A DNA stretch of 64,000 nucleotides, from contig OY740783.1 of NCBI GenBank assembly GCA_963514005.1, positions 6,076,001 to 6,140,000 on the forward strand, given 5' to 3'. Source of the stretch: Raja brachyura (taxonomy: Eukaryota). Below are positions 36,091-63,621 of the stretch, in pieces; the stretch's first letter is position 1, and every line of letters starts with the position of its first letter. A program made the translations under genes and the position numbers. The notes under the pieces were generated by a model that did no database searches, had not been told where the DNA came from, and saw only the letters and a program-made list of their open reading frames with translations.

Positions 36091-37014
36091 ATCAACAAAT
36101 AACAAATAGTACTAATAATATAGTCTTTCATAGTTCAGACCTTATTTGTTGTTTAATAGCCTGATGGCTATCAGGAAGAAGCTGTTCCTCAATGTGGATG
36201 TTACAGTTTTCAGTTTACAAAAGTCGGACGTGACTCCAGAAGCCGTGATTCAGTCCGTTAGTCCAGAGACCATGAGTTAGTCCAAAGGCAGTGCGTGAGT
36301 CCTGAGGCCATGAGTAGGTCGCTCTCCCCCCCCCCCCCCCCACTGACATCCCCCACCTCAAGACGCTGCCCTCCACCTGACTATAGGATGCTCCCCGTCC
36401 TGAAGCCACCCCCATCCCCCGCTGCAGGACATCCCCATCCCCCATCAGCCCATGAGAGCCCCCGCCTGAAGCCGTCCCCCTCCCTCGGTTGCAGGATGTT
36501 TGCCCCCCCCCCCACCCCACCCCACCCCGACAGCCCCGCCTCAAATAAATGTTTTGCACAAATTCTTCAGTGAGTCCAGAGGATTGAGAATTACAACAAA
36601 ACAATGGAATTCTTTAATTTGCCACAACCGAGAAATGGAAGGATGCACCTTGATGATGACAATCCAGATTTGCTGCGCCCCTTCAGCAGACCCAATTCCC
36701 CTTTCAATTAAGTTTTGCTATGATGATCCATAAAGCACATGAACAAACAATGCAGGTGTTGATCTACCTCGACAAACTGGTATTTCAGCTTGGAAAACTA
36801 CATGTGTCTCTAAACCGAGGAAAGATGAAGGGAAATCAAAGTTTTCCTGAAAAACGGAACATCGACCAAGAATGTTGACCTAATGGGCAGGAATGGATGC
36901 TCTGTGGGAGAACCACTATGAGTGCATGGGGGGAGGTTGTGGGGAGATGGACTGAATGTGTGGGGGGAGGGGAATGGCAAGGAGCAGAGAGGGAGGCTGA
37001 AGGGAGCAGGGGTG

Positions 37015-37335
37015 ACTGAGTGAACTGCCAGCGTACCAGGCGTGAATGACTGCACTGCCAGTCCACCAGCTGTCAGTGACTGCACTGCCAGTCCACCAGC
37101 CGTCAGTGACTGCACTGCCAGTCCACCAGCCATGAGTAACTGCACTGCCAGTCCACCAGCCGTGAGTGACTGCACTGCCAGTCCACCAGCCATGAGTGAC
37201 CGCACTGCCAGCCCACCAGCCGTGAGTAAGTGAACTGCCAGCCCACCAGCCGTGAGTGACTGCACTGCCAGCCCACCAGCCGTGAGTAGGTGAACTTCCA
37301 GCCCACCAGCCATAAGTGACTGAGCTGCCAGCCCA
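37015..37335. repeat. 30-bp minisatellite (about 10 copies)
   Basis: Unit TGCACTGCCAGTCCACCAGCCGTGAGTGAC. Confidence 0.95.
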
Positions 37336-41164: not shown

Positions 41165-44100
41165 AAATCGGAAGTGTCTGTGATGTAGTTGAACAAAGGG
41201 GACTATGAAGGCATGAGAGGGGAGCTGGCCATGGTAGACTGGAAAGGGATCCTAGCAGGAATGATGGTGGAACAGCAATGGCAGGAATTTCTGGGCATAA
41301 TCCGGAAGACGCAGGAGGGGAGTAGGAGGCAACCGTGGCTGACGAGAAGTTAGGGATAGAATAAAACTAAAATAAAAGATGTATAACACAGCAAAGAGTA
41401 GCTGGAAGCCAGAGGATTTGGAAACTTTCATAGGACAACAGAAGGAAACAAAACGGGCAATACGGGCTGAAAAGATGAAGTACGAAGTACTGGAGGACAG
41501 AGGACCTAAGGGGGTAAAGGAACTGAAAGAAATTTTCAATAGGCGAGAAATAGTATTGGGTAGGCTAATGGGACTGAAGGATGATAAATCCCATGGACCT
41601 GATGGTTTGCATCCCAGGGTCCTCAGGGAGGTGGCTCGAGAAATAGTGGACGCATTGATGATCATTTTCCAATGTTCAATAGATTCAGGATCAGTTCCTG
41701 TGGATAGCTACTGTTATCCCACTTTTCAAGAAAGGAGTGAGAGAGAAAGCGGGGAATTATAGACTAGTTAGCCTGACTTCGGTGGTGGGAAAGATGCTGG
41801 AGTTAACTATTAAAGAGGTACTAATGGAGCATTTGGATAGCAGTACAATTATTAGTCCAAGTCAACATGGATATATGAAAGGGAAATCATGCTTGACTAA
41901 TCTTCTGGAATTTTTTGAGGATGTGACAAGTAAAATGAATGAAGGGGTGCAAGTGGATGTAGTGTATCTAGACTTTCAGAAAGTATTTGATAAGGTCCCG
42001 CACGGGAGACTGGTGACTAAAATTACAGCATATGGTATTGGGGGTAGGGTGTTGACATGAATAGAAAATTGGTTGGCAGACCGGAAGCAAAGAGTAGGAG
42101 TGAACGGGTCCTTTTCAGATTGGCAGGCAGTGGCGAGTGAGTGCCGCAAGGCTTGGTGTTGGGGCCGCAACTGGTTACCATTTATATTAATGATTTGTTA
42201 GTGGGAATTAGGAGCAACACTAGCAAGTTTGTAGATGACACAAAGCTGGGTGGCAGTGTGAACTGTGAAGAGGATGTTAGGAGGTTGCAGGGTGACCTGG
42301 ACAGGTTGTGTGAGTGGGCAGATGCGTGGCAGATGCAGTATCTATATTACTAAAATCTGATCTTGACCGCTTTTGGCTCGTTGTGCTGTGATTTCCGAGA
42401 GAACACCACCACCTGCGGCCGTCATTTTTGGCCCACTCGTTCAGAGCCCCCCTCCGCCTTCCTGGACCAGAGGATTTTTCCCATCGATGAAAATTCAGAG
42501 ATATATTAATGTTTTTTAAAAATTCCCCATTCTCTCTGCTGCCCCTGCTGGAGGGAGGGGGAGGGACTATGAAACCAGGAAGTGGTGTGCCTCAGTCTCT
42601 GAAAGATGGAGGAAGCCAGAGGTTCACGTCTCTCTGATCTCTGAATAGCACTGAACACATGTCTACTCAACTGTGAGTGCCCTTAATGAGGTTTGAAAAT
42701 GAAAATTTCATTGGTTTGAAGTAAAAGGGCACTGCCTGCAAATGGTTGTTTGGCTGCTTTGGGTTGAAGATAAAAGGCACTACTGTAAATGGTGGCTTGG
42801 GTGCTTTGGGTTGAAGTTAAAAGGCACTACTGCAAATGGTGGCTTGGGTGCTTTGGGTTGAAGTTAAAAGGCACTACTCACTGCAAATAGTGGTTTGGCT
42901 GCTTTGGGTTGAAGTTCAAAGGCACTACTTACAGCAAATGGTGGTTTGGCTGCTTTGGGTTGAGGCAAAAAGGCACTACTTACTGCAAATGGTGGTTTGG
43001 CTGTTTTGGGTTGAGGCAAAAAGGCACTACTTACTGCAAATGGTGGTTTGGCTGCTTTGGGTTGAGGCAAAAAGGCACTACTTACTGCAAATGGTGGTTT
43101 GGCTGCTTTGGTTCAGGTTAAAAGGCACTACTTTCTGCAAATGGTGGTTTGGCTGCTTTGGTTTGAAGTTAAAATGCACTACTTACTGTAAATGGTGGTT
43201 TGGCTGCTTTGGGTTGAAGATAGCAGGAAGATTGTTCCCGATGTTGGGGAGGTCCAGGACATGGGGTCACAGCTTAAGGATAAGGGGGAAATCCTTTAGG
43301 ACCGAGATGAGAAGGACTTTTTTCACACAGAGAGTGGTGGGTCTCTGGAACTCTCTGCCACAGAGGGTAGTTGAGGCCAGTTTGAGGCCAGTTCATTGAC
43401 TATATTTAAGAGGGAGTTAGATGTGGCCCTTGTGGCTAAGGGGATCAGAGGGTATGGAGAGAAGGCAGGTACAGGATACTGAGTTGGATGATCAGCCATG
43501 ATCATATTGAATGGCGGTGCAGGCTCGAAGGGCCGAATGGCCTACTCCTGCACCTAATTTCTATGTATCTATGTTTCTATGTTTCTATAGGCACGACTTG
43601 CTGCAAATGGTGGTTGGCTGCTTTGGGTTGAAGTTAAAAGGCACTACTTACTGCAAATAATGGTTTGGCTGCTTTGGGTAACTTCCTGTTTGCACTGTAT
43701 AATGATTTTAGATAAAACGCTACTACTTATGGCTGTGATTTTTGGCCATCTTACTCAGTCGCCCTCCGCTCAGCAGGTGCAGAGGATTCTTCCCATCAAT
43801 TAAAAATAAAAGTGGTATTACTGTTTAAAAAATGTTGAGAGTCTCTCTCCTGCCAATCACGCCATGAAGGCCACACCTTTTCCAGGGGGACCAGCCTTCC
43901 TGTGTGAACATGGGACCCAACGGGTCCCACTTAGTCTAGTAATATAGATAAATGTGAGGATATCCACTTTGGTGGCAAAAACAAGCGGGCAGATTATTAT
44001 CTAAATTGGGGTTAGGTTAGGTAAGGGGGAGGTGCAGCGAGACCTGGGTGTCCTTGTACACCGGTCACTGAAAGTTGGCTTACAGGTACAGCAGACAGTG

Positions 44101-49069: not shown

Positions 49070-50376
49070 CATAGAAACATAGAAAATAGCTGCAGGAGTA
49101 GGCCATTCGGCCCTTCGAGCCTGCGCGGCCATTCAATATGATCATAGCTGATCATTCAACTCAGTATCCTGTCCCTGTCTTCTCTCCATACCCCCTGATC
49201 CCTTTAGCCACAAGGGCCACACCTAACTCCCTCTTAAATATAGCCAATGAACTGGCCTCAACTACCTTCTCTGTGTGAAAAATGTTTCTCTCATCTCGGT
49301 CCAAAAAGATTTCCCCCTTATCCTTAAACTGTGACCCCTTGTTCTGGACTTCACCAACATCGGGAACAATCTTCCTGCATCTAGCCTGTCCAACCCCTTA
49401 AAAATTTTGTCAGTTTCTATAAGAATTTAGAAGATTGAGGGGGGATCTTATAGAAACTTACAACATTCTCAAGGGGTTGGACAGGCTAGATGCAGGAAGA
49501 TTGTTCCCGATGTTGGGGAAGTCCAGAACCAGGGGTCACAGTTTAAGGATAAGGGGGAACATTTTTAGGACCGAGATGAGAAAAACATTTTTCACACAGA
49601 GTGGTGAGTCTGTGGAATTCTCTGCCACAGAAGGTAGTTGAGGCCAGTTCATTTTTGGTTTTGGTTTCAGGGTTTTGGTGAGGCCACACCTGGAGTACTG
49701 CGTACAGTTTTGGTCTCCAAATCTGAGGAAAGGCATCCTTGCCATAGAGGGGGTACAGAGAAGATTCACCAGACTGATTCCTGGGATGTCAGGACTTTCA
49801 TATGAGGAAAGATTGGATAGACTCGGTTTGTACTCGATGGAATTTAGAAGATTGAGGGGGGATCTTATAGAAACCTACAAAATTCTTAAGGGGTTGGATA
49901 AGCTAGATGCTGGAAGATTGTTCCCGATGTTGGGGGAGTCCAGAACAAGGGGTCACAGTCTAAGGATAAGGGGGAATTCCTTTAGGACCGAAATGAGGAA
50001 AACATTCTTTACACAGAGAGTGGTGAGTCTCTGGAATTCTCTGCCACAGAAGGTAGTTGAGGCCAGTTCATTGGCTATATTTAAGAGGGCGTTAGATGTG
50101 GCACTTGTGGCTAAAGGGATCAGGGGGTATGGAGAGAAGGCAGGTACGGGATACTGAGTTGGATGATCAGCCATGATCACATTGAATGGCGGTGCAGGCT
50201 CGAAGGGCCGAATGGCCTACTCCTGCACCTATTTTCTATGTTTCTATGTTTCTATGGTATGGAGAGAAGGCAGGTACAGGATACTGAGTTGGATGATCAG
50301 CCATGATCATATTGAATGGTGGTGCAGGCTCGAAGGGCCGAATGGCCTACTCCTGCACCTGTGTTTCTATGTTTCA
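49070..50376 (+). mobile_element. Stack of HER1 3' fragments (one inverted at 49070-49425) directly upstream of the VH promoter
   Basis: Repeated RGDLIETYK...GEKAGTGY ORFs and (CTATGTTT)n tails. Confidence 0.88.
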
Positions 50377-50379
50377 ATG

Positions 50380-50556: not shown

Positions 50557-50602
50557 ATGAGGTCGGCGGTTTCACTGAGTCTGTTCCTGGCGTTAATAGT
50601 CC
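50557..50602 (+). CDS. Ig heavy chain (IgM cluster) leader exon
   Basis: ATG at 50557 reads MRSAVSLSLFLALIV+c, then donor GTGAGT at 50603. Hydrophobic signal peptide of the elasmobranch VH leader type; phase 1. Confidence 0.93.
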
Positions 50603-50776: not shown

Positions 50777-51080
50777 ATGTCCATTCCGATGTCGTTCTAA
50801 CTCAGCCCAAGACAGCGACGGCCCGTCCTGGAGGCTCCATTACACTGGAATGTAAAACCAGCGGGTTCACTCTTAGCAGCTACGCAATGTATTTGGTCCG
50901 TCAGGTCCCTGGGCAGGGGCTGGAGTGGCTGATTTCCTACAACAGTTATTATAGCAAGAACATCGCTCCGGGGATAGAGAGCCGATTTACTCCGTCCAAA
51001 GACAATTCGAATAATATGTTCACCGTGACCGCCAGGGACCTGAGGATCGAAGACACCGCTGTCTATTACTGTGCGAGAGA
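50777..51080 (+). CDS. IGHV: Ig heavy chain variable (VH) exon, open reading frame
   Basis: Acceptor ttgcag, then (H)[100 protein letters not shown]. Both Cys and the YYC motif are present; heptamer follows. Confidence 0.97.
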
Positions 51081-51119
51081 CACAGTGTGAGGATTCAGTG
51101 ACAAGAGCGGCACGTTGGG
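51081..51119 (+). promoter_or_regulatory. VH 3' recombination signal sequence, atypical
   Basis: Perfect heptamer CACAGTG at 51081-51087. At 23-bp spacing the sequence is CACGTTGGG (not a nonamer). Nonamer-like ACAAGAGCG lies at 51101-51109, giving a 13-bp spacer. Confidence 0.8.
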
Positions 51120-51427
51120 AAGTCCAGCTTTCACCATCAAAGACCAGAGGTGAGAATTTTTTTTCAACAGCTATAATAACAGTCGGAAAATGGAGCGCAA
51201 ACTACCGTTGGCAAATCCAACACGATATGTTGTTCCATTGTTTAAAAAGGGTTCAAAGAATAAACCTAGCAATTATTCAAAATGTAACCAGCGCATTGAA
51301 GTGAGATTGGTTTGTTCTTTCCTTCACTCATACCGACAGCGTTGTGTACAATCATAGACCTCGAATATATGCTGATTCCATTACGCAGTTGAGATGCAGG
51401 GAGATTGTTGGTGTTATGTCTACTATG

Positions 51428-51583
51428 TTCCAGTTCATTGGCTATATTTAAGCGGGAGTTAGATGTGGCCCTTGTGGCTAAGGGGATCAGAGGGTATGGA
51501 GAGAAGGCAGGTACGGGATACTGCGTTGGATGATCGAAGGGCCGAATGGCCTACTCCTACACCTATTTTCTATGTTTCTATGT
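51428..51583 (+). mobile_element. HER1 3' fragment inside the V-D interval
   Basis: ccagttcattggctatatttaag...cctattttctatgtttctatg. Confidence 0.85.
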
Positions 51584-51660
51584 TCTCTGTGAACTGCTGG
51601 GCCATTTAAAATCGTGTCGAAGGCCATTTCAAATGAAACCCAAGTGTGAACTGTATGGGA

Positions 51661-51688
51661 GGTTTTTGTGTGGGTCTGTCTCACTGTG
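51661..51688 (-). promoter_or_regulatory. Canonical 12-bp-spacer RSS 5' of the D segment
   Basis: Plus-strand GGTTTTTGT (51661-69), 12 nt spacer (gtgggtctgtct), CACTGTG (51682-88). Both motifs are perfect consensus. Confidence 0.95.
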
Positions 51689-51758
51689 TATGCGGTGGGT
51701 AGAATACTTACGGGTTTTGACTACTGGGGAGGAGGCACCATGTTGACCATAACCAACG
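51689..51758 (+). CDS. IGHJ: Fused D(-D)-JH segment
   Basis: Reads YAVGRILTGFDYWGGGTMLTITN+g, then donor GTAAG at 51759. FDYWGxGT J motif; no heptamer or nonamer between the D-like and J parts. Confidence 0.9.
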
Positions 51759-53284
51759 GTAAGAAACTTCATCCTATTCAGTCTCTAGATGTATCCAGTT
51801 GTAATTTTAATATATATTTCCAATAATTGTCTTCTGCATTAATTACCAATTCATTGCAATGTTGGATCGATGTTGCTTTAGAATGTTATGTGATTTCGCT
51901 GCAGTAAGATTACCAAATTAAACGTGCCTTGTATGCTATGACTTCGATCCTTTGATGATGGAACGGGTGTGATTTAGTTCCTAATTAGTCGAAAAATGTG
52001 CTTGAATTTGCCTTCACCATGCTTTCAAATTGTTTGAGACTGTTGTTGTCCAAGATCAGCGATGCATCTAACTGTGTTTTCTGATCAACAGCGGGTGCTT
52101 TGTCTCAGTTTGTTTGTTCTCAACGCATATTTCTCAACACATGGATTTAAGAGAGAGTTAGATAGAGCTCTAGGGACTAGTGGAATCAAGGGATATGGGG
52201 AGAAGGCAGGCACGGGTTATTGATTGGGGATGATCAGCCATGATCACAATGAATGGCGGTGCTGGCTCGAAGGGCCGAATGGCCTCTTCCTGCACCTATT
52301 TTCTATGTTTTTATGTTTCTATATGAAACAAACGATAGAAAGGGATAAATCCTGGGTGTAAAATGTCCAAGTTTTCTATATAAGAAGTGTATGTATTAAT
52401 TGGTGGAATCGCATTGCTACCTTTGATCCAATGGCTAACAAAACTTGCATTGAAGATGTATCATTTTCTTGCAGCAAAGCACAGAAGTGCAAAGTTCTTT
52501 AGTAACTTGTCAGTTTCTTTGTTGAACTCAATTAAGGAGCATGTTGCAATCAAGATCGCTTGAACAATGGGTTGGGAAGGCGGTGTGTCTCCATATCGTG
52601 GAAGCATTGGTAATCACTCTCCAATGTCCTATACATTCTGCATCAGTTCCTGTGGATTAAGGGTAGATAATGCTATCCCACTTTTCAAGATAGGAGGGAG
52701 AGAGAAAGCAGGGAATGACAGAGCAGTTGGCCTGACATCGGTAGTGGGAGAGATGCTGGAGTCAATTAGCAAATAAGTAACATCGGCGCGTTTGGTTAGC
52801 AGTAACAGGATCGATCTATTGTCTATGTATCTATGTATTGGTGGAGTCCATTTGTTATTGTGTTATTTCAACAATGATTGGCTCGGCCGTCTTTGGGCCA
52901 ATGAATTTCGGTGGTCTATGGACAGAGATATTTGGATTTTTGTGAAGAGTTTCAGTCAATGTGTGTTGTGTGATTCAGCCCATCAGCGGTATCATTCAGC
53001 CGGTCATTGCGGGAGACGATGGTGTTGCACAATTGGATGTTTTTGTATGTTCAATTCGAATGGCAACGACCGGGTATTGCTGTCGGATTGGGTTATTTCA
53101 ATAAACGCAAAGAAGATATATGTTTAAAAATAAGCAGGAATTGATGTAAATTAATAAGACCAATACATTCTGCAAACACTTAAAGGGTCAGGCAACCTGC
53201 GGCGAAAGTCAAATCTCAGGCAGGGGACCAGAAAGACAGCTGGTAGCGCCAGAGCGCCAACTACGTTTCCGAAATCAGTGGCAG

Positions 53285-57435: not shown

Positions 57436-57732
57436 CGGCTGATTCCCCCCCCAGCCCCTTCATTCTCTTCACGTGCGAGGATCGCGGCTCCAGTGGTTCG
57501 TTCACCTACGGTTGTTTGGCGTTGGGCTATTCCCCTGCGGGCGCCAGTGTCTCTTGGAAGAAAGATGATACAGACCTGGTCGATGGAGTGAAGGAATACC
57601 CGGCAGTGTTCAATAAGTTGGGAACTTACACCCGGAGCAGCGAGTTAACCATCACAGAGGCAGTGGCTGGGGGAAGCGACATCTTCTGTGTGGTTCGGCA
57701 CAACCAAAAAGAGTATAAAGTGAAAGTACCAG
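57436..57732 (+). CDS. IGHM: IgM CH1 exon
   Basis: Acceptor ttgcag; AADSPPSPFILFTCEDRGSSGSFTYGCLALGYSPAGASVSWKK...TYTRSSELTI...DIFCVVRHNQKEYKVKVP; donor GT at 57733. C1-set Cys/Trp/Cys plus an N-terminal Cys suited to light-chain linkage. Confidence 0.92.
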
Positions 57733-59972: not shown

Positions 59973-60287
59973 AACATGTGGTATATCATCCAACCGTCAC
60001 CATTACCGTAACTTCCCTTGATGAAATCAAGCGCAGCAAAAAAGCGATCGCCGTGTGTTTGGTCAACGATTTCACCCCAGCAAAATTTGCTGTGAACTGG
60101 CTGAAGAATGGAAAGCAAGTGGATTCTGGCATCGTCACCTCTCCCGCCTTCCAGGTGAACGTTAACGGTAACTTCTCAGCGACCAGCCAGTTGACAATCC
60201 CAGCTCTAGAGTGGAACGGACGTGCCGTCTATACCTGCCAAGTCAACCATGAAAAACATATAAAAAGCCAAAATATCAGTAGGCAAG
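59973..60287 (+). CDS. IGHM: IgM CH2 exon
   Basis: Acceptor tttcag; EHVVYHPTVTIT...AVCLVNDFTPAKFAVNWLKNG...FSATSQL...YTCQVNH...ISRQ; donor GTAAG. Confidence 0.95.
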
Positions 60288-60748: not shown

Positions 60749-61051
60749 ATGATGGTCCCTGCGACGAACTGAAGATTACAATCCTTCCACCACCTGTTGA
60801 ACAAGAGTTAATGGAGATGACCGTGACGTTAACCTGTCTGGTATCCGATGCACCTTACGGTATCACAGTATCTTGGAAGCGCATAAAGGTGCCTTTGGCA
60901 TTAGATATCCAGTCCACAGAACATGGGGAAATCGTAGAGAGCAAAGTAAACATTTCGACTCGTGACTGGCTGAGTGGGGATTATTTCGAATGTGTGGTGA
61001 GCCATGAAGATCTGCCGTATCCAAAATCTAAACAAATCAACTGGAAGAAAG
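60749..61051 (+). CDS. IGHM: IgM CH3 exon
   Basis: Acceptor ctatag; DDGPCDELKITILPPPVEQELMEMTVTLTCLVSDAPYGITVSWKR...DWLSGDYFECVVSHEDLPYP...WKK; donor GTGAG. Confidence 0.95.
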
Positions 61052-63229: not shown

Positions 63230-63621
63230 GTCAACATCTGCTGACACCGTCCGTCTCAGTCCTTCTGCCGCCGACAGAAGAGATCTCCGCGCACAAGACT
63301 ATCACCCTCACCTGCTTTGTGAGAGGATTCTCCCCTCGCAGGGTCTTCGTAACGTGGACGCATGATGACAAGCGGGTGCATTGGAGCAAGTACAAGAACA
63401 CCGAGGTGGTGGCGGAGAACGGCAATGAAACATTCTTCACCTACAGCCTGTTATCCGTTGGGGCAGCGGAGTGGGCTAGCGGAGCCTCCTTCTCCTGTCT
63501 GGTGGGGCACGAAGCACTCCCCATGAAGACCATTGTCAGAACGGTCAATAAGTCTAGCGGTAAACCCAGTTTTGTCAACGTTTCCCTTGTATTGATGGAC
63601 ACTGTCAATTCCTGTCAATAA
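63230..63621 (+). CDS. IGHM: IgM CH4 exon plus secretory tailpiece
   Basis: [37 protein letters not shown]...[13 protein letters not shown]...[23 protein letters not shown]. Typical elasmobranch mu tailpiece with NVS glycan site and penultimate Cys; internal donor G|GTAAAC at 63560 for the membrane form. Confidence 0.97.

Follow-up and report, generated by a model that had tools for sequence, protein, structure and literature searches.

An inherited V-DDJ configuration with a shortened V recombination signal in a skate IgM cluster, probably a young pseudogene whose frames are still open

Can an IgM heavy-chain cluster still be used when the recombination signal (RSS) of its only V gene has apparently lost ten base pairs of spacer? 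V(D)J joining is described as requiring one 12-RSS and one 23-RSS (PMC10536018), and cell extracts are reported to obey this 12/23 rule strictly (PMC2196333). The question arises for a cluster of the skate Raja brachyura lying in a stretch of 64,000 nucleotides (G000:C3:6076001–6140000, where C3 is the contig that carries it), here called the window; labels of the type L001–L027 denote the VH loci of this genome. The window contains one skate-type IgM heavy-chain minicluster, on the + strand, with the layout of elasmobranch IgM miniclusters: a leader, one VH, a whole D1, a D2 reduced to a five-base remnant and one JH, all in a single orientation, followed by four C-mu domains with a secretory tail and by transmembrane (TM) exons (Table 1). 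For CH4 and its tail, identity is 93% with a thorny skate protein and 68–70% with named shark IgM chains. A PDB search found generic VH relatives only.

The original prediction held that the leader, V, DJ and all four C exons are open. Open they are, the DDJ in the frame of J and with normal splice sites, but the supposed DJ is a germline fusion of D1, D2 and J: comparison with paralogues shows V to be unjoined and the whole to be a V-DDJ cluster. TM1 and TM2, ~10 kb beyond the end of the window, are open too, and the promoter-proximal region, splice sites and D1 12-RSS are intact. Residues private to the cluster are R16 in CH1, A39 in CH2 and R19 and T36 in TM1. Three peculiarities considered as possible defects or as otherwise special were rejected as such, namely Leu for the usual Trp in FR2, common to 12/12 aligned paralogues; a stop codon directly 3' of the heptamer, where paralogues are alike; and the GC splice donor of TM1, seen in all 12 clusters read (this one and 11 others).

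Table 1 Features of the IgM cluster (positions in the window unless given on C3)
Feature	Position	Strand	Remarks
IgM leader exon	50557..50602	+	46 nt, GT donor; 0–1 mismatches to six sister clusters (exon and flanks)
VH exon, open, unjoined	50777..51080	+	Pfam V-set E 5e-14
V-RSS: consensus heptamer, 13-bp spacer, family-type nonamer ACAAGAGCG	51081..51109	+	Deletion point 51100/51101 (equivalent to 51103/51104)
Short interspersed repeat, V-D interval	51428..51584	.	In 8/8 C3 clusters and 0/6 aligned C2 clusters; very high copy
Perfect 12-RSS 5' of D1	51661..51688	-	Heptamer 7/7, nonamer 9/9
D1, full length	51689..51700	+	Two A>G changes from common D1
Germline junction	51701..51716	+	3 untemplated-looking bases, 5-base D2 remnant (51704–51708), 8 untemplated-looking bases
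JH	51717..51758	+	5' end trimmed by 6 bases; GT donor, phase 1
C-mu 1 exon, open	57436..57732	+	
C-mu 2 exon, open	59973..60287	+	
C-mu 3 exon, open	60749..61051	+	
C-mu 4 exon, secretory tail and stop	63230..63621	+	
TM1 exon	C3:6150017-6150144		Past the window end

The V heptamer, starting at 51081, matches the consensus and the sole nonamer-like word after it, ACAAGAGCG at 51101–51109, follows a 13-bp spacer and matches at 6/9 positions. At spacers of 21–25 bp nonamer scores are 0–2/9, so that there is no 23-type V signal. This bears out the original description of a perfect heptamer, nothing at 22–23 bp and a 6/9 word after 13 bp. The further claim, that a 10-bp deletion had turned a 23-RSS into a near-12-RSS, agrees with the paralogue alignment, in which exactly 10 bp, ACAGACCCGT, present in 12/12 aligned split clusters, are absent here, while the V coding end, heptamer and nonamer beside them are unaltered. 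The loss has four equivalent placements arising from a flanking 3-bp ACA repeat. Its length appears to have been set by the distance between the repeats, and its correspondence to one helical turn, to which attention had been drawn, looks incidental. As the loss falls between ACA repeats and leaves both coding end and heptamer untouched, replication slippage or microhomology repair would be the simplest cause, and a RAG open-and-shut event was rejected as its origin.

Comparison of the spacer with those of the paralogues had been proposed as a check. It supports the deletion, their spacer being 23 bp, but not the idea that the nonamer is a second lesion: ACAAGAGCG is found in 6/6 sister clusters on C3, and is thus the norm of that subfamily, and ACAAGAACG, one base different, in 7/7 on contig C2. 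Thirteen of the 15 unjoined VH genes of the genome have a 23-bp spacer along with intact D and J signals, and the 13-bp spacer is confined to the remaining two, the V-DDJ copies of the window and of L002. An exact search of 2.7 Gb for the shortened signal found these 2 places, and its reversed control none.

The fused D1-D2-J translates as YAVGRILTGFDYWGGGTMLTITN, with the J frame open and a fixed junction GRILTGFDY. D2 and J are both trimmed (J by 6 bases) and ~11 bases (3 + 8) look untemplated, on the partition into D2 remnant and extra bases that we read from the D2 and J of the paralogues. Relative to split clusters, the 3' signal of D1 and the signals of D2 and J are absent together with ~750 bp; through the fusion, therefore, the cluster has lost both the 22-bp signal of D1 and the 23-bp signal of J. 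The trimming and extra bases are consistent with a RAG/TdT origin, and RAG with TdT-like base addition, acting in germ cells, may have made the joint. In cartilaginous fish, germline joining is explained by RAG activity in germ cells (PMC2193156). Contigs from 4 of 22 listed sequencing runs were compared with 51094–51900 and none spanned the D-D-J junction; they ended at 51700 and restarted at 51717–51733, one paralogue-type contig started at 51101, and such contig gaps carry no evidential weight.

To place the cluster among its relatives, 40 of 138 candidates from a VH search of the genome were scored, giving 27 VH exons and 13 copies of a repeat; a J-intron search recovered the same 27 places. 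Fifteen of the 27 have an unjoined V, and 13 of these are laid out V23 / 12-D1-22 / 12-D2-12 / 23-J. The other 12 comprise two VD-D-J clusters (L017, L018), one VD-DJ (L020) and nine fully joined (L024 by coordinates only). Among germline-joined loci L019 and L026 are in frame, and L016, L021 and L022 are out of frame with almost no D between V and J. The fully joined VDJ at L023:1500–1907 (C2, ~156.63 Mb), which is related to the L021 and L022 joints, is back in frame by way of a CDR3 tandem repeat (exon of 390 nt against 340) and lacks the second V cysteine. Eight clusters (L001–L008) lie at C3:5.26–6.34 Mb, the two V-DDJ copies on the + strand and six intact split clusters on the - strand, the nearest of these 155 kb and 207 kb away; the only upstream V on the same strand of C3 is that of the twin with the same deletion. 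The region is made of recent segmental duplications, with offsets of 474 kb (~99%) and 109 kb (99.8–99.9%). On the stem of the six split clusters (L003–L008) the polarised base changes in C exons comprise 9 replacements and 0 silent changes, a hint of positive selection on C-mu.

The twin, L002, is located 473 kb upstream of the window cluster and has the same deletion and the same junction. The block around it matches C3:6,048,489–6,296,000, at least 247 kb, at 97–99.8% identity (~99%) and with separate repeat insertions, the comparison being continuous over ~106 kb and sampled beyond. Other duplications of >99% are found in the same region of C3, and the twins could be paralogues or, alternatively, two haplotypes assembled one behind the other. 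Judged from these two copies, the D1-D2-J junction is inherited, not somatic. In a tree of the C exons (14 of the 27 clusters included) the pair falls outside the six split C3 clusters with a support of 98 and, since both lesions are common to both copies, they date to the stem of the pair. The suggestion that inactivation was recent thus holds in the sense of fairly recent, after the split from the six sisters and before the ~99%-identical duplication. Non-coding change on the stem is 1.45% (32/2210 sites), calculated without the promoter and from those 4 of 8 exon-flank alignments that could be aligned well enough to the outgroup.

What remains of the ability to rearrange? In a rearranging cluster a V 23-RSS faces a D 12-RSS; here, as originally claimed, the shortened signal faces the downstream 12-RSS, and the latter is perfect. 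A 13-bp spacer makes a weak 12-RSS, with 11% of the activity of a 12-RSS in a plasmid assay using mammalian, not skate, RAG (Akamatsu 1994 as cited in PMC7753069). The V signal, with its 13-bp spacer and 6/9 nonamer, is predicted to act as such a weak 12-RSS and would be left unpaired against the strong 12-RSS of D1. Because no 23-type partner is left in cis, the cluster is likely to be rearrangement-dead or nearly so. The deletion is thus a disabling lesion of the kind that defines a pseudogene, in so far as mammalian RAG data apply. We conclude that the locus is probably a germline V-DDJ cluster with a broken V signal, a young pseudogene that is still open in frame and unable to join its V usefully.

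The frames would still be open for the reason that little time has passed: with 1.45% non-coding change on the stem, open frames may be expected without selection. On this stem the C and TM1 exons show 6–8 replacements (6 polarised, 8 including unpolarised) at 1091 sites against ~16 expected from non-coding sequence (Fisher P 0.023–0.091), and the C exons alone 4–6 at 994 sites (P 0.010–0.051). Replacement against silent change on its own is not significant (P 0.20–0.25). Replacement sites have an inherently lower mutation rate, and exchange between clusters by conversion could mask change. The deficit would be seen if the gene had worked for part of the stem, if gene conversion had acted or if the gene were still in use; constraint on the C exons probably operated over part of the lineage. 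Two changes in TM1, T>R and A>T, are at positions invariant in the 10/10 paralogues read, and V carries Ile where 12/12 paralogues have Phe or Tyr. The copies have come to differ at 6 coding sites since the duplication: 3 of the differences are silent and the other 3 are replacements, each in the twin. The window copy has had 0 replacement changes, these being very few events. The pattern fits a gene that was functional during part of the stem and is drifting now.

Several other explanations have to be set against a young pseudogene. An artefact, in the form of a consensus error in the spacer or a DDJ junction that stems from clonal lymphocytes in the sample sequenced, is hardly credible. The spacer is known from the assembly sequence alone and the twin block is possibly a second haplotype in tandem, but two copies, assembled separately and distinguished by ~1% divergence and by repeat insertions, agree exactly in deletion and junction, which excludes a single read error or a lymphocyte clone for paralogues and haplotypes alike, and the lineage bears its own substitutions throughout. 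It is also unlikely, if less so, that the cluster leaks in cis, RAG at the DDJ 12-RSS taking the V heptamer 600 bp upstream and giving low-level IgM with a mostly pre-set CDR3. In mouse Tcrd a true 12-RSS joins upstream convergent CAC motifs, in total ~1% of junctions (PMC4995090), and here the V heptamer is perfect, convergent and close. No regular target competes with it in cis, the DDJ can be read through in the frame of J, and some constraint shows in the C exons. Such off-target joins are, however, rare and scattered across many sites, 13 intact split clusters compete in the same B cell, and TM1 and V are altered at the conserved sites described above.

Use of the cluster's parts by other loci has similar difficulties. 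We think it rather improbable that it is a donor cassette, whose DDJ is joined through an inversion by the intact V of a neighbour or whose C exons receive, by switching, the rearranged VDJ of another cluster. In its favour, the 12-RSS is intact, DDJ, C and TM exons have open frames, C-exon replacements are fewer than expected, and in nurse shark a V is reported to be expressed with the C of other clusters >120 kb away (PMC4279169). Borrowing a V from the six intact C3 clusters, all on the opposite strand, would nevertheless need an inversion of at least 155 kb; the only upstream C3 V on the same strand has the same deletion; the window's junction occurs in none of the 9 fully joined clusters (L024 sequence left out); and 96/97 partial IgH rearrangements of nurse shark were inside a minilocus, leaving at most 1/97 for joining between clusters (PMC2435157). 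With inverted neighbours, a broken twin and this 96/97, the earlier proposal that the DJ-C half serves another cluster's V is weakly supported at best. AID-linked pairing of one cluster's C with another's VDJ has been described (PMC4279169); such use of these C exons would need no RSS and may occur. Very improbable, finally, is joining of the V, through its 12-like signal, to a distant 23-RSS partner, whether the JH or D1 of a different cluster or a segment of a TCR locus. A 13-bp spacer retains about one-tenth of 12-RSS activity against a 23-RSS (PMC7753069, mammalian RAG) and split neighbours supply 23-RSS J and 22-RSS D1 signals, but the nonamer is 6/9 and these partners are >150 kb away and inverted. 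Joins of IgM V to TCR-delta D are reported to be common in sharks (PMC12227049), and trans-rearrangement of this kind had been proposed for the V. In mouse, however, the signal of D-delta on the side of V is a 12-RSS (PMC4995090), so the route calls for the very 23-RSS that was lost; the shortened signal removes it if the mouse layout holds in skates. The profile and protein searches run did not locate TCR-delta in the genome: PF09291 (TCR alpha/delta) gave nothing over cut-off, and in a search with V for longer proteins none of the 120 matches listed, out of 290, was a chimera with TCR-delta, four candidates read being IgM. A genome search with PF00227 gave 25 matches, none on C3.

The order of the two lesions bears on how the pseudogene arose. 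Among 14 V-RSS lineages (twin counted once) the sole V-DDJ lineage is also the sole lineage with a broken signal, a coincidence of a single event and so no more than suggestive. If the deletion came first, it would explain why germline joining halted at V-DDJ. Fusion first is equally possible, since no signal of the subfamily is weaker than the V nonamer, V-DDJ is a common somatic stop in one group of nurse shark clusters (PMC2435157), and the partial forms L017 and L018 persist with usable signals. None of the 27 clusters is an allele with one lesion only. We regard as unlikely the fuller scenario in which the signal broke first, trapping germ-cell RAG at V-DDJ once it had made the D1-D2 and D2-J joints with TdT-type additions and failed at V, and the resulting pre-assembled DDJ-C-mu cassette is still used, by heptamer-only capture of its own V or through neighbours' V. 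If true, it would be a natural germline experiment on the 12/23 rule and a step from cluster toward translocon-like use.

Reviews list VD-J, VD-DJ and VDJ as germline IgH forms in sharks and skates (PMC5192425, PMC4279169). The window cluster resembles such partly joined clusters in being an IgM minicluster with fused segments, trimmed ends and extra bases, and in the loss of intervening DNA and signals on fusion; it differs in that V is the unjoined piece and has a broken signal, and V-DDJ is absent from the lists these two reviews give. The same configuration is known as a somatic product in nurse shark, prominent in Group 5 and ascribed to the relative efficiency of RSS pairs (PMC2435157), but there it is transient, confined to lymphocytes and has a working V signal, whereas here it is inherited, duplicated and, as predicted, blocked. 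The NS4 light chains of nurse shark (PMC2193156) are alike in their split ancestors and, if the joint here was indeed made by RAG, in recent RAG-type joining in germ cells; their joints are complete with little TdT activity, unlike the incomplete junction here with its ~11 untemplated-looking bases. As in V and J pseudogenes with RSS defects, such as mouse J-beta 2.6 (PMC212687), an open segment would be silenced through its signal, with the differences that the spacer changes class (23 to near 12) and that in a one-V cluster the whole gene would be lost. Our literature search, in which older and subscription skate IgH papers and supplements were thinly covered, found neither a germline V-DDJ nor a 23-to-13 spacer change; V-DDJ was met in the somatic nurse shark study only (PMC2435157).

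Most probably, then, the locus belongs to a redundant family and was disabled recently, with the uncommon twist of an inherited V-DDJ. It adds this form, paired with a clean and datable signal lesion, to the known partly joined germline IgH configurations. The fixed junction and private C residues make a built-in tracer for the obedience of skate RAG to the 12/23 rule in vivo and for the sharing of parts among clusters; if the junction never appears in transcripts, the case reduces to one of many redundant copies dying in the ordinary way.

The remainder of the window is rich in repeats. Just upstream of the IgM promoter, at 49653–50379, are stacked repeat fragments, of which the twin lacks ~550–600 bp. 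Ten upstream open reading frames were scanned; six are LINE-type reverse transcriptase or endonuclease, one belongs to a repeat family below the cut-off and three are without a match. In an AT-rich LINE-like element at 4121–9720 a stop and a frameshift interrupt the frames for endonuclease and reverse transcriptase, and more reverse transcriptase fragments occur at 10684, 25221, 31561 and 33708. There are tandem arrays at 37012–37335 (30 bp, 10.8 copies) and 42711–43219 (51 bp, 10.2 copies).
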